Below the pieces are notes generated by a model. It did not search any database and was not told where the DNA came from. It saw nothing but the letters and a program-made list of their open reading frames with translations. 31,754 nt of DNA from a virus (lineage: Duplodnaviria; Heunggongvirae; Uroviricota; Caudoviricetes). The position numbers were made by a program, and so were the translations under genes. The DNA lies in the IMG/VR virus record IMGVR_UViG_3300037313_000650; one strand, given 5' to 3'. This document shows, in pieces, positions 12,482-28,223 of this stretch (within the stretch, counting starts at the first letter, position 1; every line of letters begins with the position of its first letter).

Positions 12482-12489
12482 TATCTTAT

Positions 12490-13117: not shown

Positions 13118-13434
13118 TGAAAGAAGCCATGTATTATACAGGAAGAAAACTAAAAACCAAAAGTTTAAAAGGTTTTCCTGCACATATAGAATTTTGGGTT
13201 TCTAGTGATAAAACTACAACGATTCTTAGAAGAAAAGTATTACTACCTTATGATAAGGATATTAAGAAAGATAAGAATTTCAATCTAATTAGAGTGTTTA
13301 ACTTCTCCAAAGGTAAAGTGATACTTATTCAACAGGAGATTACAATGAATCCCAATAACATGATAGATACTGTAAATTTAATATTAACAGTATTAGAAGA
13401 AAATAAACTGATTGAACTTATTAAAGGTACATAA
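13117..13434 (+). CDS. hypothetical protein
   Basis: Start moved to the TAATG-coupled ATG (MKEAM...). Confidence 0.75.
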   Translation: MKEAMYYTGRKLKTKSLKGFPAHIEFWVSSDKTTTILRRKVLLPYDKDIKKDKNFNLIRVFNFSKGKVILIQQEITMNPNNMIDTVNLILTVLEENKLIELIKGT

Positions 13435-13835
13435 TGAAAAAGATATTATTAATGCTGGTATTGTTTGTCACCAGCTTTATAGTAAAAGCACAAACAACGT
13501 ATTATGCAGAATATATAGGTAAAACACTTTGGAATAAATATTCTAAAAAATGGGATTATCAAATGCCCAAAGAAACATTCCAGAAGATTACTATATATGG
13601 AGATGTTATTTTAGTGGAAGATAAAGCTAAATCTAGATATACTGTTCATAATGTAATTGATAAAAGTGAAGGGTATTATTACTATACTATATGGAACGCA
13701 GTAGATGAAAGTGGTAGAGAATGTGTAGTAAAACTATCCAAAAGAAGTGATGAGAAATACAGTGAACTATGTGTATTTTATATTAGTTATAGTTCTGGTT
13801 TGTATTATTGGTTTGATGATAAAAAATCTTACTAA
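13434..13835 (+). CDS. putative secreted/periplasmic protein
   Basis: Sec signal MKKILLMLVLFVTSFIVKA-Q, with Gln at +1 as typical of Bacteroidota SPI substrates. Confidence 0.8.
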   Translation: MKKILLMLVLFVTSFIVKAQTTYYAEYIGKTLWNKYSKKWDYQMPKETFQKITIYGDVILVEDKAKSRYTVHNVIDKSEGYYYYTIWNAVDESGRECVVKLSKRSDEKYSELCVFYISYSSGLYYWFDDKKSY

Positions 13836-14002
13836 TGAAAATTGGAAATAAAGTAATTTGCACTCTGCACCCTGATTGGGGTGCTGGAGTGCTTTCTTGT
13901 ATCTCTGAAGGTAAAGGATTCATCTATTGGGGTGAATTTGGAGATATGAGAGACAGAAAGTATGAATTTTGTGATTTATCATTAATAAAAATTGTTATAT
14001 GA
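13835..14002 (+). CDS. small hypothetical protein, SH3-like pattern (55 aa)
   Basis: Read manually: MKIGNKVICTLHPDWGAGVL...; TAATG and ATGA coupled. Confidence 0.7.
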   Translation: MKIGNKVICTLHPDWGAGVLSCISEGKGFIYWGEFGDMRDRKYEFCDLSLIKIVI

Positions 14003-14313
14003 CAATACATGATTGTAAAGAAGGTGTAGTGTACTATTACATACTACAAAGTAGTAGATGGTTAGGAAGGTTTGTTAAAATTGATAGAAGTCAATTATGG
14101 AATGAAGCTAATCTTGATATTAAGGGTGAGCATCTTTATATATATAATACGGGTTCTACAAATCTTTGTGGTACAAATAAAGTATTAGAAGTAAGAGAAG
14201 CTACACCTGAAGAGGTAGAACATTATGAACAATGTGTTGCAGCAAAGAAATATGTAGAATACAAACCTTCTATTAAATCACCTCAAATAATTAATAGTTA
14301 TGACATTTTCTGA
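13999..14313 (+). CDS. YEIF-tail protein 1 (RxAT/CIxAxK family)
   Basis: VREATPEEVEHYEQCVAAKK; ends PQIINSYDIF. Confidence 0.85.
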   Translation: MTIHDCKEGVVYYYILQSSRWLGRFVKIDRSQLWNEANLDIKGEHLYIYNTGSTNLCGTNKVLEVREATPEEVEHYEQCVAAKKYVEYKPSIKSPQIINSYDIF

Positions 14314-14596
14314 TTTAGTAATAGGAGGTGTATATTATGTTCATTGTCCTAAGTATGGGTTTAAATGGATAGTTGAACGTGGTGAAAATCTATTTAACCG
14401 ATATGGTATAGACTTAACAATAAGTAATGACCCTCGTCTTGAAAAAAGTATGGGTTCATTCGTTGAGGATTACGAATGGGAGATTCGTGAGGCTACAAAA
14501 GAAGAAAGAGAATGGTTATGGAAATCTATAAATGCAGATAATATAGTACCAAGAGAAAGTATTAATCCTATAAATAATAATTATGAAATATACTAA
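14300..14596 (+). CDS. YEIF-tail protein 2 (RxAT family)
   Basis: IREATKEEREWLWKSINA; ends PINNNYEIY. Confidence 0.85.
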   Translation: MTFSDLVIGGVYYVHCPKYGFKWIVERGENLFNRYGIDLTISNDPRLEKSMGSFVEDYEWEIREATKEEREWLWKSINADNIVPRESINPINNNYEIY

Positions 14597-14873
14597 TTAT
14601 TCTGATCTAATAGCAGGGCAATACTATGTATTCTATTTTAATAAGAGTGATAATACAGAGTTAAGAGTTATATTTAAATATGGTGGGCGTGAAAATGAGA
14701 AAAGGCACTATATTGATGCTGGTGATAAATACAAATTTGATACATGTTGTAGATGCAGTGGTTATTTTGTTCCTGCTTCTCCTGAAGATATTGAATGGTT
14801 AGATGATTGTATTGCAGCAGGTAAAACTGTTCCCAGACCTACAAAAGTTAATAATAATTATGAAATATTTTAA
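14583..14873 (+). CDS. YEIF-tail protein 3 (RxAT family)
   Basis: VPASPEDIEWLDDCIAAGK; ends PTKVNNNYEIF. Confidence 0.85.
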   Translation: MKYTNYSDLIAGQYYVFYFNKSDNTELRVIFKYGGRENEKRHYIDAGDKYKFDTCCRCSGYFVPASPEDIEWLDDCIAAGKTVPRPTKVNNNYEIF

Positions 14874-14882
14874 TTTTAATAT

Positions 14883-15179
14883 ATGAAATTATCAGAATGT
14901 ATTGAAGGGGTCAGTTATGTATTTGAAAGTGGTAATTGGCCTTATTTAGGTATATATAAAGGTATTAGAGATGATGAAATTATTACAAATTGCTGTTTAA
15001 ATCTTGAAACAGCAGAATTTTTCAAAGAAGAAACACGCTTAATGGATTTGGAATCTCTTGAAAATGTTAGAATACCAACTGACGAAGAGGTTCAATGGTT
15101 TAATGCATGTATTGCAGCTAATAAGGCGGTAAATAAAGCAGATATACCAAAAATCAATAACAACTACGAAATATTTTAA
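14883..15179 (+). CDS. YEIF-tail protein 4 (RxAT family)
   Basis: VRIPTDEEVQWFNACIAANK; ends PKINNNYEIF. Confidence 0.85.
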   Translation: MKLSECIEGVSYVFESGNWPYLGIYKGIRDDEIITNCCLNLETAEFFKEETRLMDLESLENVRIPTDEEVQWFNACIAANKAVNKADIPKINNNYEIF

Positions 15180-15237
15180 ATTTTACAAACTATTATAAAC
15201 TTTTTCTTTATTTTTAAACTTTAAAATTCAAACTAAA

Positions 15238-15702
15238 ATGAGTACAAAGAAAGCAACTGGAAAAGAGACATTAGCATTGACAACAACTACAGAAGTTCCT
15301 GAAGTGATTAAAGCATTGCAAGCACAAATTGATGAATTGAAAGATATTGAAACTTCACAGTGGAAAACAAGTGGTAATCTGGATGGTTTTGGTAGTATTA
15401 AGGAAGAAAAGAAGATTGAGAACTTGATTCGTGCTTATTCTTCTGTTAAAGGTAGAGCTAACGCTTATGAAGATGCAGCAGATGATTTAGGTATTACTAC
15501 CTATCCTCAGTTTAATATCAATGGTGGTACAGTAGAAGATTGGAAGCATGATATTCAATTGAGAATTGCTATTGTCAATCATAAAGAAAAGCTGGATAAA
15601 CTGAAAGATTTTAAAGCTAAAGCAGAACGTTTCCTTTCTGAGGAAGATCAGAAGAAGATGTTATTCAATGAAATGTCTGCATTTCTTGGATTAGGTAAAT
15701 AA
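15238..15702 (+). CDS. coiled-coil hypothetical protein
   Basis: 154 aa, heptad-rich, own terminator. Confidence 0.85.
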   Translation: MSTKKATGKETLALTTTTEVPEVIKALQAQIDELKDIETSQWKTSGNLDGFGSIKEEKKIENLIRAYSSVKGRANAYEDAADDLGITTYPQFNINGGTVEDWKHDIQLRIAIVNHKEKLDKLKDFKAKAERFLSEEDQKKMLFNEMSAFLGLGK

Positions 15703-15720
15703 GTCTCTCTTTTATTGCTT

Positions 15721-15752
15721 AAAGTCCCTGCCTTTTAGGTGGGGACTTTTTT
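15721..15752 (+). terminator. intrinsic terminator
   Basis: aaagtccctgcct...aggtggggacttt plus T-run. Confidence 0.8.
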
Positions 15753-15772
15753 AATTATTTAAATCTGTATAT

Positions 15773-16381
15773 ATGAAACAGATAACTCTTATACTAACTG
15801 TATTAACATTATTAGCCTGTAAAAAGGAAGATGTATCTCCAGAAACAAGTATCATTGAAGTGGAATCTAATTATAAAACAGTTATATATCTAAACTTTGA
15901 AGGAAAGAATATTGTAAATACTGATTGGAATAGTATATACAATATCCAGCAAGTAAATTGTGCTCCTTCCAGTTTTACTAATAATCAGAAACAACAGATA
16001 TATGACAGTTTGATTAAATATCTACAGACTTTCCACATTAGACTTACTGTAAGAAGAGATATTTACGAAAATGCTAATCAAAAAGCAGAAATAGTAGTTA
16101 CCCCTACAAGCTATTGGGCAAAAATAGATGGTATGGGTATCGCAGCAGTAAATTCTCTCACTTATAATATCCCTGCTTTTGTATTTAGCGATGTATCAAA
16201 CAACAATATCCGTAATACAGCCCTTGCAATTGCACATGAAGTAGGACATATTGTAGGACTTAATCATACGAAAACAAATAATTCATTCTATAATAGTTCT
16301 TTCATGGGATATCCCTATCTTAGCTCAAATCCCATATGGACAGAAGAAGACAAACAAATCATTAACCAAAATCTACAATAA
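15773..16381 (+). CDS. lipoprotein zinc metallopeptidase (metzincin/matrixin-like)
   Basis: Lipobox LLA-C then KKED; HEVGHIVGLNH (HExxHxxGxxH); downstream SFMGYP Met-turn. Confidence 0.85.
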   Translation: MKQITLILTVLTLLACKKEDVSPETSIIEVESNYKTVIYLNFEGKNIVNTDWNSIYNIQQVNCAPSSFTNNQKQQIYDSLIKYLQTFHIRLTVRRDIYENANQKAEIVVTPTSYWAKIDGMGIAAVNSLTYNIPAFVFSDVSNNNIRNTALAIAHEVGHIVGLNHTKTNNSFYNSSFMGYPYLSSNPIWTEEDKQIINQNLQ

Positions 16382-16629
16382 TGAATAAGAAATACAACAG
16401 TATTGAAGAAATTATAGGTATAGTCATTAAGTCTGGAAGAGATGATTATAAGGTTATTAAAAATGAAGACAATGAAGACGAATTTGGTCTTATTAATCTT
16501 AAAGTTGGTAATAAATATTTTAATGCATCATATAAATTACTCTATTTTAATAAGAAGTTAGAGCAAGGAATATGGAAAGTAGTAACTGAACCCAAACCCG
16601 AAATCAATAATACCTACGAAATATTCTAA
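16381..16629 (+). CDS. YEIF-tail protein 5 (G/D-x-WK[IV][VI] family)
   Basis: EQGIWKVV; ends PEINNTYEIF. Confidence 0.8.
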   Translation: MNKKYNSIEEIIGIVIKSGRDDYKVIKNEDNEDEFGLINLKVGNKYFNASYKLLYFNKKLEQGIWKVVTEPKPEINNTYEIF

Positions 16630-16811
16630 TGAAAAAAGTAATCAAGATAATGTCCCTACATGGAGAATACTATAGTGTTGAACCAATCATCTTCAGTAGT
16701 GCAAGTGTACACTTTGAAGATATAACTGGTATAAAACGTATAGTTGGTATAGCTGACATAATTGCTATTACATTAACAGAAAAAGATATTAACAATGAAA
16801 AAATTCATTAA
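16629..16811 (+). CDS. hypothetical protein
   Basis: 60 aa, TAATG coupled. Confidence 0.65.
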   Translation: MKKVIKIMSLHGEYYSVEPIIFSSASVHFEDITGIKRIVGIADIIAITLTEKDINNEKIH

Positions 16812-17007
16812 CAAGTTCTTCAAAGACTTTTGTTGGCATTCATGGGATTATTATAATCCATACAACAGAACCTGTACTTTATGTAATGAACATCAAGTAC
16901 AATTTCATAATACTTATGTTTCTAATGGTATGGTAATTCATGTAGACGAATGGGAAACAATGAATAAAACTACTAAAAATGAAAGATTTAAACCTGAATT
17001 GGATTAA
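16795..17007 (+). CDS. small Zn-finger-like protein
   Basis: CWHSW...RTCTLC pattern. Confidence 0.7.
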   Translation: MKKFINKFFKDFCWHSWDYYNPYNRTCTLCNEHQVQFHNTYVSNGMVIHVDEWETMNKTTKNERFKPELD

Positions 17008-17524
17008 ACTCGGTCATACTGGCTGTAATTTTGCATCCATATTTGCTAAAAATCCAGAATGCGTAGGTTGGAAAAGAATAATCAACCCTCTAGGTTTCTC
17101 AATACCAGAGGGTTGTTTCATTTTATCCCTTATTTTTCCAGATAGAGACATTAATTTTGTTCGTAATTGGGCATTAAACAATGGGTTCTTTGAAGAACAG
17201 GTAGCCGAAGGTCTTACTGGACTTAGATTAAAAGTTCCAGAAGGTATCTCTTGGGTACAGTATTTTGGTCCTGATAGTCATGTAAAAACCAGACAAGCAC
17301 CTATGCCTGAATTGTTAATGTGTGTAAAACTACCAGCTAAATACTACTGGAAGGTAGGATTTAAAGGTATATTACACCTTGCTCATGGAGCTATAGATTG
17401 TATTCGTAGTAAGGTGGTAGATAATGTTTGGGATACATCATTTAAACGTACAGCTAAAATATTAGGACATAAACCAACCATTACTGAGGCTGCAAAGACA
17501 ACTTTTAAAAATAAACAATTATGA
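16979..17524 (+). CDS. hypothetical protein
   Basis: 181 aa; GCNFA motif; no firm family. Confidence 0.8.
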   Translation: MKDLNLNWIKLGHTGCNFASIFAKNPECVGWKRIINPLGFSIPEGCFILSLIFPDRDINFVRNWALNNGFFEEQVAEGLTGLRLKVPEGISWVQYFGPDSHVKTRQAPMPELLMCVKLPAKYYWKVGFKGILHLAHGAIDCIRSKVVDNVWDTSFKRTAKILGHKPTITEAAKTTFKNKQL

Positions 17525-17769
17525 AATATTCTAAAGATAGACCTACTGAATTAGTAGGTAAGAAATTTATATATAGTGAAAATGAATATAGGATTATAGA
17601 TTATGATGATAAGAGTAACAAATTTCTTACAAAATATCTAAATGGTATACAAAAAGGTGAAATATTTGAAATGAGTGCTGATCATTATACATTTGGATAT
17701 TTCAATGATGATACTTGGAAAATAATTGAAGAAGAACCTCAAATAAATAATAACTATGATATATTTTGA
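17521..17769 (+). CDS. YEIF-tail protein 6 (WK[IV] family)
   Basis: DDTWKII; ends PQINNNYDIF. Confidence 0.8.
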   Translation: MKYSKDRPTELVGKKFIYSENEYRIIDYDDKSNKFLTKYLNGIQKGEIFEMSADHYTFGYFNDDTWKIIEEEPQINNNYDIF

Positions 17770-18130
17770 TATGATACACGGTAATTATTACTATTACCGC
17801 AATAATAAAAATGAAAATAGTTTAGGCTGGATAATAAAATTTAATGAAATTAAGACTTGTTCTGCTTATTCTGAGGGTCAATCTATTTTTAATTTAGCCT
17901 CTGTTAATCTGGATAATTATGGTAGCTTTTATACAAATGATGAAGGGGGAGATAGTAGATTTCATGATATAAAATCTGATGAATATTATGATCTAAGACC
18001 TGCTACTCCTGATGAAATTAGATATTTGGATGAATGCATAGAGAACGGAAAGAAGGTATTACCTATTCCAATCTTCACTTCTCCAGTTGAAGGTACAATT
18101 AAAATAATTAATGATTATGACATTTTTTGA
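17756..18130 (+). CDS. YEIF-tail protein 7 (RxAT family)
   Basis: LRPATPDEIRYLDECIENGK; ends KIINDYDIF. Confidence 0.85.
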   Translation: MIYFDMIHGNYYYYRNNKNENSLGWIIKFNEIKTCSAYSEGQSIFNLASVNLDNYGSFYTNDEGGDSRFHDIKSDEYYDLRPATPDEIRYLDECIENGKKVLPIPIFTSPVEGTIKIINDYDIF

Positions 18131-18464
18131 CATGGTTTATGGTAATTATTATTACTATAAGAATGATGAAAGTACAATAGCTTACATATTGAAATTCAAT
18201 GAGATACAACCATATAAAAACTACAATTCTTTATATGTTTTAGCTGCTGCTAGTATCAAAGGTTATGATACTTTTATGGATAAGGAAGAAGGTGGTAGTG
18301 ATAGATTTTTGGATATTGGACCGAAGAAAAACTATACATTAAGACCAGCCACTATAAAAGAAATAATGTGGCTTGATGAGTGTATAAAAGAACAAAAATG
18401 GATAAATTATAATCCATCCAAATTACCTGAAAATCAGATAAATAATAATTATGAAATCTACTAA
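18117..18464 (+). CDS. YEIF-tail protein 8 (RxAT family; close paralog of protein 7)
   Basis: MTFFDMVYGNYYYY vs MIYFDMIHGNYYYY; both have EGGxxRFxDI; ends QINNNYEIY. Confidence 0.85.
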   Translation: MTFFDMVYGNYYYYKNDESTIAYILKFNEIQPYKNYNSLYVLAAASIKGYDTFMDKEEGGSDRFLDIGPKKNYTLRPATIKEIMWLDECIKEQKWINYNPSKLPENQINNNYEIY

Positions 18465-18678
18465 ATACAAAGTTGGAGATTATGTAAGAGCTTTAACTAC
18501 TGGTTTTTATGATGATATTGTAGTACCAAATAAGATGTATAAGGTTGCAAGACTAGAGAATGATGGTAGCGGAGTGCATATAGAAATAGATAACTTTTTA
18601 ACTTTATATATGTATAATAGTGAAGTAGAATTAGCTAACAGTCCACAAGAAATAATTGATTCGTATGAAATATACTAA
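18451..18678 (+). CDS. YEIF-tail protein 9 (SH3/KOW-like)
   Basis: KYKVGDYVR...EVEL pattern; ends PQEIIDSYEIY. Confidence 0.8.
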   Translation: MKSTKYKVGDYVRALTTGFYDDIVVPNKMYKVARLENDGSGVHIEIDNFLTLYMYNSEVELANSPQEIIDSYEIY

Positions 18679-18895
18679 AGAAAATATAATCAGTTTAGTA
18701 GTTCAAGCTGGAGAAGGTAAAAATACTTCAAAGTATACAATAGTTGCTCCAATAGATAACACAGACTTTGCACTATGTGATTGTGATGGTGATACATACG
18801 GGAATTATCATTTTTCAGAATTTAAAAAATATATTGAAGAAGGTACGTGGAAAATTGTTGAGCCTGTAATCATTAATTCATACGAAATTTATTAA
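18665..18895 (+). CDS. YEIF-tail protein 10 (WK[IV] family)
   Basis: EEGTWKIV; ends PVIINSYEIY; start at overlapping ATG 18665. Confidence 0.8.
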   Translation: MKYTKENIISLVVQAGEGKNTSKYTIVAPIDNTDFALCDCDGDTYGNYHFSEFKKYIEEGTWKIVEPVIINSYEIY

Positions 18896-18897
18896 TC

Positions 18898-19134
18898 ATG
18901 AGTGAAGAACGCTACATTGGTTACGGACTTCTCCTTGATTTACCTTCAGGAAGAGTAGGATTAGAATTAACACTTAACCAGCTATCAGAACTGTATAAAG
19001 AAGCTGTAGAAAATAATGGTAAGGTGAAGGTTCTAGTCCTACCTGTTAAACCTGAAAATGTAACAGAGTGGAGAACTCATTCAGTTAAGATAGGAGAAAG
19101 CAAATATAAACAGAAACTTATAAAAGAGCATTAA
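18898..19134 (+). CDS. hypothetical protein
   Basis: 78-aa ORF. Confidence 0.75.
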   Translation: MSEERYIGYGLLLDLPSGRVGLELTLNQLSELYKEAVENNGKVKVLVLPVKPENVTEWRTHSVKIGESKYKQKLIKEH

Positions 19135-19135
19135 C

Positions 19136-19540
19136 ATGAAATCAAAGATTGAAATTATTGATGAGACTGTAGCTTATTATAGTGAAGACCCTAATAGAAG
19201 GGCAGTAGTAATGACTACATGTAAGTACCGCACTCCAGATGGTAGAATGTGTGCATTTGGTAGGTGTATGACTGAAGAAAGTTTAGAACTATATGGTGAT
19301 TTTCAAGGTGGTGTTATGAGACTTTTACTTAAATGTTATGACCGTCCACTTTCAGATGTGATTCTCCTAACAACAGTTATTAATACACCATTAAAAGAAG
19401 AATATCAAGGTCATGAGCTTACTTTTTGGACAAATATACAACGCTTACATGATGATTTTGATTACTGGAATTCAGATGGATTAACTGAAGAAGGAAAGGA
19501 ATACGTAGAAGTTATGAAAAATAAATATAAAGGGTTATAA
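19136..19540 (+). CDS. conserved phage protein (CKYRTPDGRMCAFG motif)
   Basis: CxYRxxdGxxCAxG motif recalled from many phage hypotheticals. Confidence 0.85.
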   Translation: MKSKIEIIDETVAYYSEDPNRRAVVMTTCKYRTPDGRMCAFGRCMTEESLELYGDFQGGVMRLLLKCYDRPLSDVILLTTVINTPLKEEYQGHELTFWTNIQRLHDDFDYWNSDGLTEEGKEYVEVMKNKYKGL

Positions 19541-19567
19541 AGAAACATTAACAAAAATAAATTCAAA

Positions 19568-21703
19568 ATGAAACAATTACAGCAAAAGATTCAAGACCAA
19601 CTAAATAAAATGACTTCAACTGGTAAGCTCTTTAGAAGTAGTATATCAGGTTCTGAAGTATGGAACATCTATATACAATCTTTTGAAAATGATCCGATCT
19701 TTCGTGACCCCAACAGTTCTACACATAATTGTAACCTGTGTAATAATTTCATCAGACGATATGGTAATATTGTAGCTGTATCTCCTGAAAATGAAATTAT
19801 GACTATTTGGGATGTAGAAATTGAAGGTGAGTTTGCACCAGTAGTTAAAGCTATCTCAACTAAATTGAAATCAGCTAAGATTCAGGATGTATTTTTTGAG
19901 ACTTATGCTGAACTTAATAGTTTGAACTATGAGAAGTGTAAAAAAACAAATACTGTATTCAGATTGGGTATAGATAAAAATCATAAACAGTATACCAAAG
20001 AAGAAGCTGATAAATTTGGTGTAGTAGAAGAGGGAGAAATCAGAACATTTCATCATCTTCATGTGGATATACCTGCTGCTTTTGTAGATATGAGTGGTGC
20101 TTCAGTAGAAGCTCTTATGGGTAGCTACAGAGATGCTAAGAATGTATTTCAAAGAGCAATGGAAGAGATAAGCATAGATACGTTACAGCTTGTTAGAGAT
20201 TTAATAAATCAAGGTAGTTTACTGGATGGTACAACACATCTATACAAAGTAGAGCAATTCATTCCATTTAAACAACAATATAGTGAGATTGGTAAAAAAG
20301 ATAGAGATAATTGGTGTTGGGCAACTTCTTATAAATTACCTATTGCTAAGTTTAAGAATGAATTGATTGGCGTATTATGTTCTGAACTTTCTGAAGGTAA
20401 GGAACTTAACGAAGCTTGTCAGGCATGGAATAAGCGTGTTGATCCTGCTAATTACATGAAAGCTACTGCACCCATCACCAAAAAGCAAATAGCAGAAGCT
20501 GAAAAATTCGTAGAAGAGAATGGATATGTAGAATCATTTGATAGAAGATTTGCTACAATTGATGATATTAAGGTGAGTGAAATACTTCATGCTAATGTTG
20601 GAGATGGTAAAATTAAGAAAGTCTCTATTTTTGATAACGTAAAGTCTACCTCTACCAGACATAAGAGAAGTGAATTTGATAAAGTGGAAGAAGTGAGTAT
20701 AGAAAAGTTCATGAAAGATATTCTTCCTTCATGTACTTCTATAGAGGCTTTCCTCACTTCTCAACATGAGGGTAATATGGTATCTCTCACTACAGCTAAC
20801 GACAAGAACAGCAAACCTATCTTTAAATGGGATAACAACTATTCTTGGACCTATAATGGTAACTTAGCTGGTAAATCACAGATTAAGCAAGCTGTAAAGG
20901 ATGCTGGTGGTAATGTGGAAGGTGTATTGAATTTTCGTTTAGCTTGGAATGAATCTGGTGAAGATAATTCTGATTTGGACTTGTGGGCTATCGAACCTAA
21001 TGGTGTTAGAATTGGTTTCAGCACACAATACAGAAAAGGTAGACCGGGATATGATCGTAGTTCTATGTCTGGTCAATTAGATGTAGATATTATCAGCCCT
21101 TCTGGTAAATTAGCTGTTGAGAATATTACATGGACTGACTTTAACAAGATGAAAGATGGAGTATATATAGTATATGTAAATCCATATCATGCATCAAATT
21201 CAAAAGGTTTTAAGTTAGAGATTGAATTTGATGGTGAAACATATGTTTATAGTTATGATCGCCCTGTACCTGTAGTATCAAATGTACATATAGCTGAAGT
21301 CACTCTAAAAGATAGGAAGTTTAGTATCAGACACTTACTTCCTGTAGTTGAAGGTACTGGTGCTCAGAAAGAAATCTATGGCTTGGAATCTAACCAATTC
21401 CATAAGGTGAATCTAGTATGTTTGTCTCCTAATCATTGGGAAGGTAACAATGTAGGAAATAAGCATTATTTCTTCATGCTGGAAGGTGCTAAATGTCCTA
21501 TTTCAATTCGTTCTTTCCACAATGAGAACCTGATTCCTGAACTTGCAGCACATAGAAAAGTGTTAGAAGTTCTAGGAGCTACTCATACTATTAAACCTAA
21601 TGGTAAGCAATTATCAGGTTTAGGTTTTAACAGTACTGTAAAGGATGAATTAGTAGTTAGATTAAAAGGTAGTCATTCAAGAGTAATAAAAATCAAATTC
21701 TAA
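19568..21703 (+). CDS. large conserved phage protein with C-terminal YfaP/DUF2135-like domain
   Basis: 711 aa; N-terminal HNCNLCNNFIRRYG (CxxC); C-terminal DLDLWAIEPNG and GQLDVD...AVENITW match the DUF2135-type pattern. Confidence 0.8.
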   Translation: MKQLQQKIQDQLNKMTSTGKLFRSSISGSEVWNIYIQSFENDPIFRDPNSSTHNCNLCNNFIRRYGNIVAVSPENEIMTIWDVEIEGEFAPVVKAISTKLKSAKIQDVFFETYAELNSLNYEKCKKTNTVFRLGIDKNHKQYTKEEADKFGVVEEGEIRTFHHLHVDIPAAFVDMSGASVEALMGSYRDAKNVFQRAMEEISIDTLQLVRDLINQGSLLDGTTHLYKVEQFIPFKQQYSEIGKKDRDNWCWATSYKLPIAKFKNELIGVLCSELSEGKELNEACQAWNKRVDPANYMKATAPITKKQIAEAEKFVEENGYVESFDRRFATIDDIKVSEILHANVGDGKIKKVSIFDNVKSTSTRHKRSEFDKVEEVSIEKFMKDILPSCTSIEAFLTSQHEGNMVSLTTANDKNSKPIFKWDNNYSWTYNGNLAGKSQIKQAVKDAGGNVEGVLNFRLAWNESGEDNSDLDLWAIEPNGVRIGFSTQYRKGRPGYDRSSMSGQLDVDIISPSGKLAVENITWTDFNKMKDGVYIVYVNPYHASNSKGFKLEIEFDGETYVYSYDRPVPVVSNVHIAEVTLKDRKFSIRHLLPVVEGTGAQKEIYGLESNQFHKVNLVCLSPNHWEGNNVGNKHYFFMLEGAKCPISIRSFHNENLIPELAAHRKVLEVLGATHTIKPNGKQLSGLGFNSTVKDELVVRLKGSHSRVIKIKF

Positions 21704-21918
21704 TGGGAAAAATTGTTTCAATTACAGAAAAAACACCAGTATCAGCAACATTACCTGATGGTAACTATGTAGGTATATGGGGTGGTAACATCATTGAACT
21801 AAAATATAATAATAAAACTTACGAATTAGAAACAGAAGTAGGTGTTAGGGGTATAGGTTATCATGTTGTAGTGATTGTTAAAGATGGTGAAGCCACATTT
21901 CAAGAACTAAAAAATTAA
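21703..21918 (+). CDS. hypothetical protein
   Basis: 71 aa, TAATG coupled. Confidence 0.75.
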   Translation: MGKIVSITEKTPVSATLPDGNYVGIWGGNIIELKYNNKTYELETEVGVRGIGYHVVVIVKDGEATFQELKN

Positions 21919-21943
21919 ATTCTAATTTTAAAATCAAAACAAA

Positions 21944-22330
21944 ATGGACAATTTCAAAAAAGCCAGCCAATTAAAGCTAAGATTTGTAACAAACAAAGGT
22001 GTATTATCAGTTGAACAATTGTGGGACTTAACCCCAACTCAATTAGCTACATTAGTTCGTTCTATTAAGGAAGAATTAAAAAGTGCTAATGTGGATGATG
22101 AACTATCCTTCCTGAGCGATAGTATCCCAACAAAAGGAGATATTGAAAATCAACTCCGTTTTGAGATTGCAAAAGAAGTATACCTAGCTAAGAAAGCTGA
22201 AGCTGAAGAATTGAGAGATGCTAAAGCTAAGAAAGAACACAATCAGAAGATTCTTGCTCTGATTCAAGAGAAGAAGGAAGGTGAACTGAAGAATAAAAGT
22301 ATTGAAGAATTAGAAGCACTTCTTAAATAA
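21944..22330 (+). CDS. conserved phage coiled-coil protein (KLRF..KG.LSVEQLWDL)
   Basis: 128 aa; family recalled as a neighbour of the 711-aa protein type. Confidence 0.85.
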   Translation: MDNFKKASQLKLRFVTNKGVLSVEQLWDLTPTQLATLVRSIKEELKSANVDDELSFLSDSIPTKGDIENQLRFEIAKEVYLAKKAEAEELRDAKAKKEHNQKILALIQEKKEGELKNKSIEELEALLK

Positions 22331-22339
22331 TTGATTATC

Positions 22340-22370
22340 AGGGTGGTGTAGAAATACATCACCCTTTTTT
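22340..22370 (+). terminator. intrinsic terminator
   Basis: agggtggtgta-GAAA-tacatcaccct-ttttt. Confidence 0.9.
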
Positions 22371-22382
22371 AAACTTTTTACA

Positions 22383-22661
22383 ATGGAAACAGCAATAGAA
22401 ATAGCAATTAAATATGCTGAAGATAATATAAAAGCTTGTAAAGATGGTACTATGATGAGTTTTGGTGAAGCTATTTGGGGTGAAAATGCTTGGATAGAAA
22501 TAAGAAGATACCTAACAGGTTTATTACCTACAGAAAGATTTAAACTTGAAAAAGCCTTCGAAGCTGGAAGTCACTGGAATGAAAAGTATAATAAATATAC
22601 TGATGATTCTATAAAAGTTCCTGATTTTAAAAAATATTACGAAGAAACTTATGCAAAATAA
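22383..22661 (+). CDS. hypothetical protein
   Basis: 92-aa ORF. Confidence 0.8.
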   Translation: METAIEIAIKYAEDNIKACKDGTMMSFGEAIWGENAWIEIRRYLTGLLPTERFKLEKAFEAGSHWNEKYNKYTDDSIKVPDFKKYYEETYAK

Positions 22662-23106
22662 ATCTATACTCCTTATAGGTCAGGCTTTACCTAGAGTGAA
22701 ACAACACGTACCATATGATAGTACTATGTTATATGAATGGTTGGAAGAATGCGGTGTATCTATGGAACAGGCACAAGATATATTTGATTTTGATGCTGTT
22801 TATGATAAATTCCCCGGCTATAATGTAAAAGGTGGTCACGCTACACCAACCTATGAACAGATGTTAGAATATTATAATAGATCATTGAGGGAGAAGATCA
22901 CTAAATATAACAAAATAATCATATTAGGAAATGTTGCAAAAATGTTTTTACTTTCTACCAATTCTCTATTGGGAAAGCACATACTGTATTTAATTCACCC
23001 TTCCAGACTAAATTTCAATCTGTATCAGAGGAACAAAGAAACAATTATTTCTAATCTGAAACAGTTTATTCATGAAGACATTTACCATCCACATCACCTT
23101 CAGTAA
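22651..23106 (+). CDS. uracil-DNA glycosylase-like superfamily protein
   Basis: ILLIGQAL (motif A-like), IIILGNVA, LIHPS (motif B) as in family 4/5-type UDG folds. Confidence 0.7.
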   Translation: MQNKSILLIGQALPRVKQHVPYDSTMLYEWLEECGVSMEQAQDIFDFDAVYDKFPGYNVKGGHATPTYEQMLEYYNRSLREKITKYNKIIILGNVAKMFLLSTNSLLGKHILYLIHPSRLNFNLYQRNKETIISNLKQFIHEDIYHPHHLQ

Positions 23107-23242
23107 GGGGAATCAGTTAATCTTCTACAATGTACAAGCTTCTACAGAAGAAGAAGCTATTCAATTAGTAGTGAAACTAATTAAAGGAAAACAAATCTAC
23201 AAAATTTCTGCTGAAGAGGATAAAAAAGTATTGGAAGTATAA
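23072..23242 (+). CDS. small hypothetical protein (56 aa)
   Basis: Read manually: MKTFTIHITF...VQASTEEEAIQLV. Confidence 0.65.
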   Translation: MKTFTIHITFSKGNQLIFYNVQASTEEEAIQLVVKLIKGKQIYKISAEEDKKVLEV

Positions 23243-23288
23243 AAACTATTTATTAACATTGCAAAACTAAAACCGCTATTTAGAAACT

Positions 23289-23465
23289 ATGAGTAAGTAT
23301 TCCGAACCACAAGTTGTAAGAGAACTAGTACAAAAACAAGACATTGAGATTAAAGGTAAGATGATTATTATTGATAACAACAAAGGAGATATTGGTATCA
23401 ACTCTAAAGGAAAGATTGACTTCCTGACAAGATACTGCGGTTACTTTATTACTATAGCTAAGTAA
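23289..23465 (+). CDS. small hypothetical protein (58 aa)
   Basis: Read manually: MSKYSEPQVVREL...GKIDFLTRYCGYFITIAK. Confidence 0.7.
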   Translation: MSKYSEPQVVRELVQKQDIEIKGKMIIIDNNKGDIGINSKGKIDFLTRYCGYFITIAK

Positions 23466-23511
23466 CCTCCATTGGTGCTTACGGGGATTTGTATTTACTT
23501 ATCCCCTTTTA

Positions 23512-23543
23512 TTTGGCAATTTCAAGAAAATATCCTATATTTA
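23512..23543 (+). promoter_or_regulatory. Bacteroidota-type promoter for tmRNA
   Basis: TTTG-N20-TATATTTA, ending 11 nt before the tmRNA 5' end. Confidence 0.7.
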
Positions 23544-23554
23544 AATCTTAATAT

Positions 23555-24052
23555 GGGGGTGTAAGGAATTGATTCACAGTAATAGGTAAATACACAGGTA
23601 AGAGTATCTAGTCCTCGCAATGCTAGGTAATAATAAATGCAGAAACTGAGCTTTCTGATATGACTTTCGATAGCTTAATGGCTTTCGTAGGTGCTGAAAA
23701 AGTAGCTGCTTAGTAGCCCTACTATTCAGTGGAGATGTAGCTAAGGCTTTTCCTCCCTTGGGGTTTGATTTAACCTTGCAACAGAATAAATCAGTAGAGG
23801 GACTCCCTTAACAGTTAAGGCTGACCTTAAGCACTCTACTTAAAATACTATTGTATATAGGGGGTGAAGCAATAGAAACCAGAGGGGAAACTGTAAAGTC
23901 ACCGGGATTGTTGTAAGTATATGTCCAAATGATAACAGAACTTTCAAAACTACGGTGCAGGTATTAAATATTAGTTTAATATCAGTACTAAACCTGTAAG
24001 TGCGTATTTATTGTATTCTGGAGAAGACAGGGCTTCGATGCCCTCACCTCCA
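23555..24052 (+). ncRNA. ssrA: tmRNA
   Basis: Acceptor stem GGGGGTG/CACCTCC-A with G3:U Ala determinant; GGAATTGA after the 5' stem; helix 2 (taaatac/gtattta, acaggt/acctgt); ACTAAACCTGTA; T-arm agggc-ttcgat-gccct; resume context AATAAAT-GCA; tag ORF 23639-23713 AETELSDMTFDSLMAFVGAEKVAA*. Confidence 0.95.
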
Positions 24053-24080
24053 CAATTTTTTCCTACACATCCACAAATAT

Positions 24081-24111
24081 TTTACTATATTTAGTATAGT
24101 TTGTATATTTG
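24081..24111 (+). promoter_or_regulatory. Bacteroidota-type promoter, probably leaderless endonuclease transcript
   Basis: TTTA-N19-TATATTTG ending 4 nt before the ATG at 24116. Confidence 0.55.
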
Positions 24112-24115
24112 TGGT

Positions 24116-24667
24116 ATGAAGAAATATAAATATAAGAGAAAGTTGGTAGAAATAGAATGTGATTATTGTGGGAACATTCATACCAAACCTGAGAGTGAAT
24201 ATAATAGGAATAAAATAAAAGGGAGAAAAAATTACTGTAGCAGAAGTTGCTGCGGTAAGGTAACAATTAAACAAAATATTCCTAAAGAGAGTATAGTATG
24301 GGAACATCTTAAAGGTATTAATAGAAGAGATAAATATACAGGATTTAGAGAGCATATAAGAAGAATTCATAATAGACATAAGAAAATTGAATTGACCTTA
24401 GATGATTTACTGGAGCAATGGAATAAGCAAAATGGTAAATGTATTTATAGTGGTGTAACTTTAACAAATCCTATTAGTACAAGAAATTATTATAATAATC
24501 CTATATGTACAGCTTCTTTAGACAGAGTTGATAGTTCAAAAGGTTATACTAAAGATAATATTCAATTCATAAGTTATTCTATGAATTATATGAAAAATAA
24601 CATGACTCATGAACAAACTATTGACTTGTGTAAAATAATTTGTAACTTTTGGGATAAAAAAGATTAA
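24116..24667 (+). CDS. freestanding HNH-superfamily (beta-beta-alpha-metal) homing endonuclease
   Basis: N-terminal CDYC...YCSRSC Zn finger; C-terminal QNGKCIYSG...SLDRVDSSKGYTKDNIQFISYSMNYMKN, the DRxD HNH variant. Confidence 0.8.
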   Translation: MKKYKYKRKLVEIECDYCGNIHTKPESEYNRNKIKGRKNYCSRSCCGKVTIKQNIPKESIVWEHLKGINRRDKYTGFREHIRRIHNRHKKIELTLDDLLEQWNKQNGKCIYSGVTLTNPISTRNYYNNPICTASLDRVDSSKGYTKDNIQFISYSMNYMKNNMTHEQTIDLCKIICNFWDKKD

Positions 24668-24675
24668 ATGATATA

Positions 24676-24830
24676 AAAATAGGAAGTGTGCCGTAGGTAT
24701 TATTAACGTTTATCGGGAAGCCTACAAGTGCTTAATATCCTTCCTATTTTAAATTATTAGGTATAGATGGTGTATGGAGTTTGATTAACCCACTATGGAA
24801 TGATTAGTAAACAGCCTCACACTATACCTA
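24676..24830. other. two adjacent long imperfect hairpins in an ORF-free gap
   Basis: aaaataggaag/cttcctatttt with inner gtaggt/gcctac; taggtatag/ctataccta with inner gtgt/acac and gttt/aaac. Confidence 0.55.
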
Positions 24831-24902
24831 AAGCTTATCAGATTTTGCCATTTGATAGCTAACCAGCCGCTTTAGTGCTGAAAATTCACATGAGAGAAAG
24901 TT

Positions 24903-24934
24903 AACCCCTTGATAGGAATATCAGGGGGTTTTTT
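24903..24934 (+). terminator. intrinsic terminator
   Basis: aaccccttgata-GGAA-tatcagggggtt plus T-run. Confidence 0.85.
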
Positions 24935-24972
24935 AATTTTGTTAAACATTTTCTAATTATAAATCAAACAAA

Positions 24973-25326
24973 ATGGCAAGAAAGAACAAAACTATCAAAT
25001 TCTACTCAGATGAAGAAAAAGATATCATCAAAAAAGCAGTAGAAAAGAACAACTATCCAAGTGCTCTTGCTGGAGCTAGGGATTTAGCCCCTAAACTAAA
25101 CAGGCCCGAAGGGGGATTAGCTTTAGTAGTAGCAAGAATGATGAAGAAAATAGGTCATCCTACAGCAAAAAATAAATCCAGAGCAATGAGTAAAAAAGCT
25201 ATTGAACCGGATAGTAGAAAATTGAATTCTAAAAAGGCTAACTTACCTAAAAAGAATCAATTATCTTTCCCACTGAATAGTGTAGATTTCGAAATTAAAA
25301 ACGGTAGAATTTGGATTAGTTTTTAG
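24973..25326 (+). CDS. basic hypothetical protein, possible HTH DNA-binding
   Basis: Lys/Arg-rich; YSDEEKDIIKK...ARDLAPKLNR Myb/HTH-like pattern; own terminator. Confidence 0.8.
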   Translation: MARKNKTIKFYSDEEKDIIKKAVEKNNYPSALAGARDLAPKLNRPEGGLALVVARMMKKIGHPTAKNKSRAMSKKAIEPDSRKLNSKKANLPKKNQLSFPLNSVDFEIKNGRIWISF

Positions 25327-25336
25327 TCCATTTTAG

Positions 25337-25365
25337 AGAAGTCCCTCAATTGGGACTTCTTTTTT
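25337..25365 (+). terminator. intrinsic terminator
   Basis: agaagtccc-tcaatt-gggacttct-ttttt. Confidence 0.85.
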
Positions 25366-25390
25366 AATTCCATAACTAAATAAAAAAAAC

Positions 25391-25804
25391 ATGAAAACAA
25401 TTGAAACTATCCTTAAGGATTACAAGAGTGAAACAATAGATGGTAGGGATTTAAGTAGACTTGTACAATTTTTAACTGAAGAACAAGCTTCTAGTATTGG
25501 TATTAACTTTAAGGATGAATATAAAGGTAAGCATGAACCTATACCATTTACAAAGGAAAATGTATTGAAACAATTAGAAAGTGATGTAGAATTTGGATTT
25601 GAAAAAGCTCTGAATCAAAGAGGTATATCTGCTGGATTGATGTATGATGTAGTAAAAATGTGGAATTGGATATTAGAAGAAGGGTTAGAAGACTTTGATG
25701 ATTATGCTTATTATGGATTACCCTTATTTAAAGCCACTGCTGTAAAATACAACTTTAACAATCCTATAGGAGAAGATTCAGGAAGTGAATCTGAATATAG
25801 CTGA
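25391..25804 (+). CDS. conserved phage protein (FGFEKALNQRGISA motif)
   Basis: 137 aa; motif recalled from uncharacterised phage proteins. Confidence 0.85.
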   Translation: MKTIETILKDYKSETIDGRDLSRLVQFLTEEQASSIGINFKDEYKGKHEPIPFTKENVLKQLESDVEFGFEKALNQRGISAGLMYDVVKMWNWILEEGLEDFDDYAYYGLPLFKATAVKYNFNNPIGEDSGSESEYS

Positions 25805-25854
25805 ATATAACAAGAATTATTTTCTTATATTTGTCATACTTAAAAACAATTCTT

Positions 25855-26058
25855 ATGCTTAGATGGACTATTATTTTTCTTGTACTTGCAATCATTTCTG
25901 CAATTTTTGCTTGGGGCAATATAGCTTCTACCTCTGTAGAAGATATTGCTAAAATAACATTCTACGCCTCTTTTATTTTATTTGTTCTATCTCTTTTTGC
26001 TGGATGTAGGAGATTTTCTGATGAAACCGATAAACTTGATGAAGATTGGGGGTTTTAA
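25855..26058 (+). CDS. DUF1328 / UPF0391 family small membrane protein
   Basis: MLRWTIIFLVLAIISAIF.WG.IA.....IAKITF...FILFVLSL matches the family; TATATTTG promoter element at 25826-25833. Confidence 0.85.
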   Translation: MLRWTIIFLVLAIISAIFAWGNIASTSVEDIAKITFYASFILFVLSLFAGCRRFSDETDKLDEDWGF

Positions 26059-26076
26059 CCACTTAATATTTAAACT

Positions 26077-26133
26077 ATGAGAAAATATTGGATTCCCGGC
26101 GATCCTTCAGAGGACGAAGGAAGTGAAGACTAA
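26077..26133 (+). CDS. candidate micropeptide MRKYWIPGDPSEDEGSED
   Basis: 18 codons after a tttaaactATG start region typical of this window. Confidence 0.4.
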   Translation: MRKYWIPGDPSEDEGSED

Positions 26134-26160
26134 CTATTTACCAAACAAAAACTAACAATT

Positions 26161-26340
26161 ATGTACATTATCTTTCAAGACAAACGAACACTTGAGTGTT
26201 TTTCTGTATCTCAAAATGCATTAGACTTTCCTGAGTTCTTAGAATTTGAACAAAGGGGATTAGTAAAGAGAGTATTTGTAGGTAAAAAACGAGATTGTGA
26301 TAAGTATCTTGAAAATGAAGTTGAGGTAGAAATGATTTAA
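26161..26340 (+). CDS. small hypothetical protein (59 aa)
   Basis: Read manually: MYIIFQDKRTLECF...; terminator follows at ~26350-26374. Confidence 0.7.
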   Translation: MYIIFQDKRTLECFSVSQNALDFPEFLEFEQRGLVKRVFVGKKRDCDKYLENEVEVEMI

Positions 26341-26385
26341 TTAATATACAAAGGGGGCTAACAACCCCCTTTTAAATTTATTATT

Positions 26386-26775
26386 ATGGTATCAAAAATA
26401 ACAGCAGGTATTAAAGTTTCAGTTGAAACTTTCTACCAACTAGATTATTCAAATCCAATGCAGTCTGAATTTATGTTTGCTTACCGTATTACTATTGAAA
26501 ATCTAACTGGACATGATATGAAATTATTAAGCAGACATTGGTTTATCTTTGATTCTGAAATTGGTAATAAAAGAGAAGTAAAAGGTGAAGGTGTAGTTGG
26601 TATGACTCCTGTTATTGAATCTGGAAAGGATTTTCAGTATGTATCAGGAGTAAATTTACATTCTGAAATGGGTACAATGAATGGGTGTTACACTTTTCAA
26701 AATCAATCTACGAAGGATTTAGTAGAGGTTAAAGTACCAAAGTTCGAACTTATTGTTCCATTTAAACATAATTAA
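26386..26775 (+). CDS. apaG: ApaG (DUF525) protein
   Basis: ITAGIKVSV...FAYRITIEN...LLSRHWFI...VKGEGVVG..PVI..G..FQYVSG..L.SE.GTM.G.Y: full ApaG signature. Confidence 0.93.
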   Translation: MVSKITAGIKVSVETFYQLDYSNPMQSEFMFAYRITIENLTGHDMKLLSRHWFIFDSEIGNKREVKGEGVVGMTPVIESGKDFQYVSGVNLHSEMGTMNGCYTFQNQSTKDLVEVKVPKFELIVPFKHN

Positions 26776-26777
26776 TT

Positions 26778-27068
26778 ATGAAAGAATTAATATTACAAAA
26801 TATAAAAACTTCAGGTAAGAATACTGCTGTATGGTGTGAGAACCTTGAAGAGTGGGAGCAAGTACTAAAAATAATAGGAAATCCACAGGAACTTACTAAA
26901 GCTAATTATAATAGTTATAGAAATGAATATCCATCCATAAATGTTAATGATGGACGTTATGGTCATAGAGGATGGTATATAAATAATTCTTATGATGTAT
27001 ATCTAGCAAGTGAATTTATCAAGGCAAATACAGGACCACAAATTATTAATTCATATGAAATTTATTGA
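26778..27068 (+). CDS. YEIF-tail protein 11
   Basis: TAVWCENLEEWEQVL body, unrelated to the RxAT family; ends PQIINSYEIY. Confidence 0.8.
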   Translation: MKELILQNIKTSGKNTAVWCENLEEWEQVLKIIGNPQELTKANYNSYRNEYPSINVNDGRYGHRGWYINNSYDVYLASEFIKANTGPQIINSYEIY

Positions 27069-27070
27069 TT

Positions 27071-27310
27071 ATGCTTCCAAAATACGGATATATTAAAGAT
27101 ATGACACCAGAGCAAACTAAACAACTAATAGAGCTACTGGAAAAAGAAGGATATAAAAAGAATTCAGATAATTATGATTGGGGAGAAGGTAAGTTAGCTT
27201 GGTATAATGATAAATTTTATAGTCATATTCTAGACGATTCTAAACAACCATTATACAAATTTGAAGATGTAATCCAAAGTGAAATTATTAATAATTACGA
27301 AATATATTAA
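27071..27310 (+). CDS. YEIF-tail protein 12
   Basis: LIELLEKEGY body; ends EIINNYEIY. Confidence 0.8.
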   Translation: MLPKYGYIKDMTPEQTKQLIELLEKEGYKKNSDNYDWGEGKLAWYNDKFYSHILDDSKQPLYKFEDVIQSEIINNYEIY

Positions 27311-27314
27311 CTTT

Positions 27315-28223
27315 ATGATTATCGGAAATAGAAAACATGCAAAACCTTTTTTGAAATGGGCAGGGGGTAAGACACAGTTGATTCCAGCGATTAAGTCTAC
27401 AATACCAAATGAGCTACACAATATCCCATTTACTTATGTAGAACCGTTTATAGGAAGTGGTGCAGTATTTTTTTGGTTTCTAAGACACTTTCCAAACATA
27501 CAGAAGGCAGTTATTAATGATGTAAACAAAGATTTAATTGATACTTACCTGACTATAAAACTTTATCCCAATGATTTAGTGAAAGAATTAAAAGAATTGG
27601 AAAAGGAATACCAAAGCCTTGATTCACAAGAAAAGCAAAAGGAGTTATTTTTAAATAAAAGAGCACTTTTTAACTCGAGAAAAAACAGCATAGTTATACA
27701 AAGCTCTTTAATGATTTTTCTAAATAGAACTTGCTTCAATGGGCTTTATAGGGTAAATAGTAAAAACCAATTTAATGTTCCATTTGGCAGGTATACGAAT
27801 CCTACTATTTGTGATACGGAAAATATTTATAATGTTAGTGTAGCTTTGGAGAACGTGACAATTCTCAACCAAGACTATTCTTCTACATTACCAGAAATTG
27901 AAGGTGATACTTTCTTTTATTTCGACCCTCCTTATAAACCTCTTAGTCAAACAGCATCATTTAACTCATATGCAAAGGATATTTTTGGTGATAGTGAGCA
28001 GCAACGCCTAAAAGTTTTCTGTGATGAGCTTGATAGAAGAGGAATCAACTGGCTTCTTAGTAACTCAGACCCTAAGAATACAGACCCTAGCAATCACTTC
28101 TTTGATGACTTATATAACCATTATTACATTAATAGGGTACGGGCTAAAAGAACAATAAACTCGGATGCATCTAAAAGAGGAGATATATTTGAATTATTAA
28201 TCCACAATTATAAAATATATTAA
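27315..28223 (+). CDS. dam: Dam-family (D12 class) DNA N6-adenine methyltransferase
   Basis: KPFLKWAGGK, YVEPFIGSGAV, NDVN, NRTCFNGLYRVN..FNVPFG.Y, catalytic YFDPPY; start moved to 27315. Confidence 0.92.
   Translation: MIIGNRKHAKPFLKWAGGKTQLIPAIKSTIPNELHNIPFTYVEPFIGSGAVFFWFLRHFPNIQKAVINDVNKDLIDTYLTIKLYPNDLVKELKELEKEYQSLDSQEKQKELFLNKRALFNSRKNSIVIQSSLMIFLNRTCFNGLYRVNSKNQFNVPFGRYTNPTICDTENIYNVSVALENVTILNQDYSSTLPEIEGDTFFYFDPPYKPLSQTASFNSYAKDIFGDSEQQRLKVFCDELDRRGINWLLSNSDPKNTDPSNHFFDDLYNHYYINRVRAKRTINSDASKRGDIFELLIHNYKIY

Follow-up and report, generated by a model that had tools for sequence, protein, structure and literature searches.

Introduction

C-terminal docking peptides that address proteins to hubs of the replisome are already known as a kind. 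Clients of the bacterial β sliding clamp (DnaN) bind a cleft between domains II and III, where the Gln at position 1 of their clamp-binding motif contacts subsite 2, and the C-terminal tails of the T4 proteins gp33, gp55 and gp43 bind the gp45 clamp. The C-terminal tip of the single-stranded DNA-binding protein (SSB), D-D-D-[IL]-P-F, has its own interactome, and the acidic tails of T7 gp2.5 and gp4 end in Phe. The bacterial clamp motif reads QL[SD]LF, as in UmuC (QLNLF) and Pol II (QLGLF) (PMC3716654), and the small phage Mu factor MuC has clamp motifs at both its N- and C-terminus, the MuC/Mor motifs being QHDLF and QPDLF (PMC12867686). Here we describe a C-terminal octapeptide (the tail) that ends twelve small proteins encoded in a 31,754-nt stretch (the window) of the viral genome IMGVR_UViG_3300037313_000650. 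The tail is probably a docking peptide for a common partner, and the host DnaN is tentatively put forward as that partner.

The source record is a complete genome of 164,315 bp with direct terminal repeats and a GC content of 32.8%, and occurs in soil and rhizosphere metagenomes.

The shared C-terminal tail

The twelve tail open reading frames (ORFs) are all on the + strand and encode acidic proteins of 75–124 aa (median pI 5.1). They are located in the strand block that also contains the genes for replication and DNA modification; the structural genes form the opposite block. The tail genes and three associated features of the window are:

13999–14313, +: tail protein, 104 aa, ends IINSYDIF; body family 1, predicted small β-barrel plus helix
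14300–14596, +: tail protein, 98 aa, ends INNNYEIY; family 1 by alignment; ATG inside the tail codons of the upstream gene
14583–14873, +: tail protein, 96 aa, ends VNNNYEIF; family 1
14883–15179, +: tail protein, 98 aa, ends INNNYEIF; family 1; AlphaFold2 model
15238–15702, +: conserved 154-aa protein, phrog_2574, tail-less, inside the array; candidate partner or co-functioning gene
16381–16629, +: tail protein, 82 aa, ends INNTYEIF; family 2, "WK[IV]"
17508–17534, +: probable out-of-frame relic copy, KINNYEIF-stop; six-frame motif scan
17521–17769, +: tail protein, 82 aa, ends INNNYDIF; family 2 by alignment
17756–18130, +: tail protein, 124 aa, ends IINDYDIF; family 1
18111–18464, +: tail protein, 117 aa (115 aa from the ATG at 18117), ends INNNYEIY; family 1
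18451–18678, +: tail protein, 75 aa, ends IIDSYEIY; singleton body
18665–18895, +: tail protein, 76 aa from ATG (79 aa from the TTG at 18656), ends IINSYEIY; family 2
26778–27068, +: tail protein, 96 aa, ends IINSYEIY; singleton
27071–27310, +: tail protein, 79 aa from ATG, ends IINNYEIY; singleton
27315–28223, +: Dam-type DNA adenine methylase, 302 aa, ends ELLIHNY-KIY; possible extra client

A preliminary description of this stretch had reported twelve ORFs sharing a C-terminal octapeptide directly before the stop, ten of them with a Pro 1–4 residues upstream; we recovered all twelve at the coordinates above, and the Pro in 10/12. The strict form of the motif, [IV][IN][ND][NSTD]Y[ED]I[FY] followed by a stop, was searched by six-frame translation of the 164,315-bp genome. 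It occurs 12 times, in each case (12/12) directly before the stop and never internally, against an expectation from amino-acid composition of 7.6e-6 among 301 ORF ends and 0.0014 anywhere in the genome. The strict motif is absent from 40/40 second-order Markov genomes, which together with the 7.6e-6 expectation rules out chance in an AT-rich genome. No tail-bearing ORF is present in two control phage genomes, those of the AT-rich Cellulophaga phage phi4:1 and of Bacillus phage CAM003, and the excess over background anticipated in the preliminary description is thus borne out. In CAM003, an annotated sigma factor and the next small protein (gp218 and gp219; L057:5021-6194) both end in KGIEI, by chance or as a small shared tail of their own.

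The codons indicate at which level the tail is conserved. Over its 24 bases the mean pairwise differences are 0.86, 1.68 and 3.61 at codon positions 1, 2 and 3, respectively; pS is 0.83, compared with 0.88 ± 0.09 expected with codons drawn freely from genome usage, and pN is 0.15. The codon variants are those listed in the preliminary description, Ser for instance being encoded by AGT, TCA and TCG, and synonymous scatter in the tail codons is present in every related phage too. Because synonymous sites are as scrambled as free codon choice predicts and pN is low, selection acts on the tail peptide, not on the DNA, as the preliminary description had proposed. DNA-level boundary elements (integron attC, T4 PeSL, lambdoid boundary sequences) were considered and rejected: variation falls mostly at third codon positions, likewise in the other phages.

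Several features of the layout would nevertheless suit conservation at the nucleic-acid level, the tail being a recombination linker between genes, a cassette site, or an element that couples translation and includes the start of the next gene; a variant would be a nascent-peptide effect at termination. In about six cases in the window, the next gene takes its start codon from the ATG within TAT-GAx, and the arrays look like cassette arrays. An out-of-frame thirteenth copy, KINNYEIF-stop, lies at 17508–17534 (+) across the end of an untailed 181-aa gene (16979–17524), and its TATGAA provides the ATG start of ORF 17521; this copy is probably the relic of a lost upstream tail gene. In the related phages, however, the next gene usually begins just past the stop and not within the tail, so that the overlap of window tails with downstream starts is incidental. 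Array-terminal genes are tailed as well, and untailed neighbours are equally tightly packed. With synonymous sites as free as codon usage allows, we regard any nucleic-acid-level explanation as extremely improbable.

Protein bodies and tail structure

The preliminary description had assigned the bodies to at least four families and viewed the tail as a portable module on unrelated proteins, set behind what looked like a linker. Body clustering and structure prediction both support this view. By blastp, the tail-protein bodies of the window fall into at least 5 groups, and 53 tail proteins from eight contigs, compared after their last ten residues had been cut off, form 35 blastp clusters. With tails removed, hhalign probabilities between the window's two multi-member families and a singleton are <1%, which rules out a single diverged protein family. 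As judged by these comparisons the bodies are mutually unrelated, at the level of sequence and profile only; several may share a small β-barrel fold. None of 22 tail proteins scanned against Pfam and PHROGs had a match above threshold, and a profile search with family 1 retrieved 6 proteins only, which makes it a rare family.

The AlphaFold2 model of ORF 14883–15179 shows a body of pLDDT 80–92, predicted as a small Sm/SH3-like barrel plus helix, for which the best Foldseek E-value was only 5e-3. The last ten residues have a pLDDT of about 52 and are without secondary structure. Because a low-pLDDT, unstructured end follows a confident body in the model, the tail is predicted to be a flexible appendage and no part of a fold, and the same disordered residues rule out a tail that forms an integral strand of the fold.

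Tails in related phages

Relatives were gathered by means of a degenerate tail DNA pattern, with the 154-aa protein as an anchor and a tail-protein homologue as a second anchor. The pattern led to four IMG/VR contigs with real tail genes, and the 154-aa homologue adjoins them in 4/4; a fifth contig, reached via a tail-protein homologue, has the 154-aa homologue too. Many matches of the pattern search had another source, a 10-codon mini-ORF, [DFV]CINN[ST]YEIF-stop, common to eleven viral contigs of roughly 36–42% GC (L003, L004, L006, L008, L009, L010, L012, L017, L020, L023 and L029), which is a conserved short element with no relation to the tail genes.

In total, 82 tails were collected from 15 uncultured phage contigs, and 82/82 are strictly C-terminal. 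Their core consensus is [YF]-x-[IL]-[FY]-COOH. Numbered back from the C-terminus (–1 being the last residue), the residue counts among the 82 tails are:

Position –1: F 39, Y 38
Position –2: I 72, L 9, V 1
Position –3: E, S, Q, D, N or T in 74, P in 6; lineage-dependent
Position –4: Y 70, F 10
Position –5: N 38, S 12, D 10, T 7, L 6, E 3, Q 2
Position –6: N 41

An Ile or Val at –8 and the Asn at –6 are also kept in many lineages. The flavour at –3 differs between lineages: E/D in the window; S/T in L036, L038 and L060; Q/E in L067; and P in L058, where the tail reads ELFPIY. Body homologues across phage boundaries retain the tail in the local flavour, in keeping with the preliminary description, which had made its reading depend on such retention. 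Backbone genes of the window recur in Cellulophaga phage phi4:1, from which the 154-aa gene and tail ORFs are both absent.

Three alternative uses of such a peptide can be weighed against this pattern. First, the tails could bind one another, as Asn-rich aromatic strands that form homotypic β-zippers and a common assembly without a separate receptor. The composition resembles that of steric-zipper peptides, the kept residues alternate (–8, –6, –4 and –2), and mutual compatibility would account for the uniformity within a genome; yet an exact C-terminal position, held by every tail, is not needed for a zipper, and eight residues is short. The predicted disorder of the tail in the monomer is uninformative either way. 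We consider self-association quite improbable.

Second, the tail could act as a degron or hold its bearers to a host protease (ClpXP, Lon, FtsH), either to time the removal of early proteins or to deliver targets bound by their bodies. SspB-type adaptors and ssrA tags do use exposed C-terminal tails, and the peptide described here is exposed, hydrophobic/aromatic and strictly C-terminal on early proteins. It does not, however, resemble LAA-type or other C-terminal degrons that have been described: ssrA-like and ClpX signals are small and non-polar (...LAA-COOH) or basic (C-motif 2), whereas the tails end in [IL]-[FY]. A degron would also leave the lineage flavours and the link to the 150-aa gene unexplained, and no protease gene is associated. 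Such a role is improbable.

Finally, a portable terminal tag on many small proteins might serve as a capsid-loading or ejection signal, comparable with encapsulin cargo-loading peptides or the T4 capsid-targeting sequence. Loading peptides already described do not resemble the tail, and the tail genes are linked to no structural gene and face the structural block from the replication/DNA-modification strand; a packaging signal is in our judgement highly improbable. The preliminary description had suggested recognition by a common partner and listed several forms of it. The strict C-terminal portability fits that suggestion, with docking on a hub favoured; capsid loading and a degron lack support, because the genes are in the early/replication strand block and the motif is unlike known degrons.

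The sliding clamp as candidate partner

The tail, in our view, is likely to dock on a common partner. The element would be a flexible, strictly C-terminal linear motif of the form aromatic(–4), polar(–3), Ile/Leu(–2), Phe/Tyr(–1), COOH, usually following Asn-rich residues, and, set on many unrelated small acidic early proteins, it would tether all of them to a single partner. That this partner is the host DnaN is our favoured reading, to which we give somewhat less than an even chance. Its hydrophobic cleft would be the likeliest binding site, on a hub that the phage DNA polymerase would also engage via QLSLF, and the tethered bodies might be accessory or host-takeover factors at replicating DNA, or rivals of host clamp clients. 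We infer (i) the binding by the tail, (ii) the clamp as partner and (iii) the role of the tethered bodies.

The phage DNA polymerase (phrog_1252, 688 aa), encoded outside the window (L043:16129-18192, –), has the canonical C-terminus QLSLF-COOH. Its homologues in four tail-bearing relatives (L036:13775-15394; L039:3666-5552; L041:2365-4236; L060:9280-11238) have ends that read, among the four, QLSLF, QLELF, QLELF and QTSLW. Tails therefore co-occur with clamp-motif polymerases in 5/5 polymerases with the C-terminus in view, that of the window's phage included, while the tail-less phi4:1 has a Pol I-type polymerase without a clamp-motif end. At L036:12225-15394 a 266-aa ORF (12924-13724), perhaps a homing-endonuclease insertion, splits the polymerase homologue into the pieces 12225-12650 and 13754-15391. 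Because searches of the complete phage genome detected no DnaN, T4 gp45-type or PCNA family, the polymerase presumably borrows the host clamp.

The phage Dam is 75% identical to the chromosomal Dam of a Chitinophagia-like genome. The E. coli UmuC clamp motif is 357-QLNLF-361 (PMC3716654). We compared the tails with the corresponding motif in the UmuC-type polymerase of the Chitinophagia-like genome and its 119 closest Bacteroidota homologues, in which it follows V or I and has the following composition (counts of 119):

Motif position 1: Q 119
Motif position 2: Y 66, F 9
Motif position 3: G 55, N 49, S 13
Motif position 4: I 66, M 25, L 23
Motif position 5: F 109, Y 10

A Y-x-I-F core with a polar third position is common to the tails and to the Bacteroidota UmuC motif (Q-Y-[GN]-I-F), and two tails read QYEIY and QFSIF, with QVNYQIY in several more. 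The hydrophobic or aromatic residues that a clamp motif has at positions 2, 4 and 5 are matched by Y/F at –4 in 80/82 tails, I/L at –2 in 81/82 and F/Y at –1 in 77/82, and its polar or acidic third position by –3 in 74/82. The flexible and commonly C-terminal location of clamp motifs is matched as well, as judged by the pLDDT of about 52 in the model and by the fact that all tails end at the stop. The preliminary description knew of no described motif that matches the tail; this no longer holds, for the core [YF]-x-[IL]-[FY] corresponds to the β-clamp motif in its Bacteroidota form, though without its Gln.

A number of observations weigh against the clamp: (i) the hallmark Gln is lacking, with Q at –5 in 2/82 tails compared with 119/119 Bacteroidota UmuC motifs; (ii) the tail is strictly terminal and keeps –6 (N) and –8 (I/V) in many lineages, none of which known clamp motifs require; (iii) the lineage-specific flavours at –3 suggest that the partner evolves more rapidly than the cleft of the clamp; (iv) the canonical QLxLF used by the polymerase is found on none of the small tail proteins; (v) the arrays all flank a 150-aa gene, for which a clamp offers no account; and (vi) the UmuC consensus is that of Bacteroidota and may not be the host's.

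The conserved neighbour gene

The fifth of these points leads to a phage-encoded alternative, in which the tail docks on the phage's own 154-aa phrog_2574 protein, an adaptor or scaffold for variable small proteins that co-evolves with the tail flavour. The window protein (15238–15702) matches phrog_2574 with an E-value of 1.5e-8, and its gene is the sole one common to all tail-gene neighbourhoods, adjoining the tail genes in the four pattern-found contigs and present also in the fifth, which was found via a tail-protein homologue. Loci reached via the 154-aa protein, given enough flank and a close homologue, each have 1–11 adjoining tail genes, while phi4:1 is without both the gene and the tail ORFs; the lineage flavours, too, would suit a co-evolving phage partner.

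Other properties of the gene fit a receptor poorly. It belongs to a large family (1108 representative clusters), members of which occur without this tail in Bacillus phage CAM003, prophage L062 and contig L064. The CAM003 protein (gp230) matches phrog_2574 at 3e-54 and shares profile and fold with the window protein, but its neighbourhood there has no shared tail. In the window, two tail genes and Dam sit 11 kb from the 154-aa gene, and the latter may just be the lone conserved gene in a region that gathers accessory genes.

The model of the 154-aa protein (four helices plus small hairpins, pLDDT 88) shows no hint of a peptide-binding groove. It resembles, among BFVD entries, the CAM003 protein (TM 0.64–0.70) and a Hakuna protein (TM 0.59–0.64); Foldseek found no match in the PDB (best E 0.76), VIA-align gave only generic helical hairpins with Z at most 6.5, and the ESM Atlas yielded nothing usable. 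Neither the 154-aa protein nor a distant homologue has a tblastn match among 50,697 records of cultured phages. When the 154-aa alignment was compared with tail flavour, a few columns partitioned, but with 11 sequences this is inseparable from phylogeny. A complex prediction between the 154-aa protein and the C-terminal 39 residues of a tail protein gave no answer (score 0.00, without controls) and counts neither way. We consider the 154-aa protein an unlikely receptor, although of the alternatives to the host clamp it is the one we take most seriously.

Some members of the 150-aa family have neighbourhoods of interest in themselves. In the library protein P0007 (240 aa), a tail gene reads through into a 150-aa family gene (...PVIVNNYQIKTITMSEK...), either as a natural fusion or through an assembly or gene-calling error. 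The prophage L062 (L062:2258-6118, 40% GC), a distant relative adjoining dnaA, has a replication module rich in terminal docking peptides: its DnaB-like helicase ends in EEDEELPF and its 150-aa family protein in GQDLPF, both like the SSB C-terminal tip, and its Dam ends in KQGSLFY and a 68-aa protein in TQGKLF, both clamp-motif-like. Downstream of the 150-aa family gene in L064 (L064:3745-6288) are about 12 paralogous genes of 64–80 aa (KIPRKLKK...), which share [HY][IV]YKN[IL]Y near the C-terminus and not at it, with an internal YKNIY.

Other genes of the window

The Dam-type methylase downstream of the last two tail genes ends in the core NYKIY. This may be chance, because NY belongs to the normal end of the Dam family, usually ...ELLI[HST]NY plus a variable extension.

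Within the tail-gene array, 15773–16381 encodes a metzincin-type zinc protease (HEVGHIVGLNH; Reprolysin-like Pfam matches) with a lipoprotein-like signal peptide, which is not kept in the arrays of other phages. Just upstream of the two distal tail genes and Dam, 26386–26775 encodes an ApaG-domain (DUF525) protein (E 1.7e-29), unusual for a phage. A 711-aa protein (19568–21703) has a full-length match to phrog_1735 (E 2e-217), a family whose function is not known and which is kept among phages.

Implications

More speculatively, a clade of soil and aquatic phages with low-GC, Bacteroidota-like hosts might run a modular system of effector addressing, in which arrays of 3–12 unrelated early proteins carry a lineage-specific address peptide and the hub is either the host clamp, bound through a Gln-less motif, or a phrog_2574 adaptor. 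We hold this to be possible, if somewhat doubtful. If such modular addressing exists, new effectors would gain function just by acquiring a tail.

If the tail is the address of a hub, it would provide a simple sequence rule for a class of phage early proteins acting at one machine, and would turn dozens of "hypothetical proteins" (82 proteins, 35 or more body families) into a testable set. Should the partner be the sliding clamp, the phage would load the host replication tool-belt with a dozen small factors of its own, and the tail would be a Bacteroidota-specific, Gln-less clamp ligand and a possible probe or inhibitor scaffold. Should it be the 150-aa protein, a first function would be at hand for a very widespread phage family of over 1,100 representative clusters.

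Comparison with known systems

A full-text literature search returned nothing relevant on the tail strings, on Bacteroidota clamp-motif strings or on shared phage C-terminal motifs. What appears new is the presence of a docking peptide on arrays of a dozen unrelated small proteins, its lineage flavours, and its constant linkage to one conserved gene.

PDZ ligands, whose specificity is carried by ligand positions 0 and –2, offer one point of reference among C-terminal motifs. The tail is most variable at ligand position –2 (tail position –3), and ligand positions –1 and –3 are kept; no PDZ gene is present among 36 proteins of this phage scanned against Pfam.

The clamp-binding motif is closer. 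Like the tail, it is an extended five-residue element that is flexible and mostly stands at the very C-terminus, and many unrelated clients use it on one hub; the tail differs in having no conserved Gln, in being always terminal and in keeping, in many lineages, further residues at –6 and –8. The proteins that carry the two motifs differ too: clients of the clamp are DNA enzymes, whereas the tail bearers are a dozen tiny proteins of unknown function. In Mu (MuC/Mor) and T4 (gp33, gp55, gp43), small phage proteins ride the sliding clamp by a terminal hydrophobic peptide, as is proposed here for the tail. In each of those phages, however, a single protein or a small number from one family does so, each with a known function, as opposed to 3–12 unrelated proteins per phage in arrays.

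The SSB tip, which is also found in phi4:1 (its SSB ends DDDLPF), is like the tail strictly C-terminal and ends in an aromatic residue; its free carboxylate is read by partner pockets and it organises replisome traffic. The tails are without its acidic run, and Pro is never at –2 and only at –3 (6/82). The SSB tip is one protein's tail with many partners, whereas here many proteins carry one tail.

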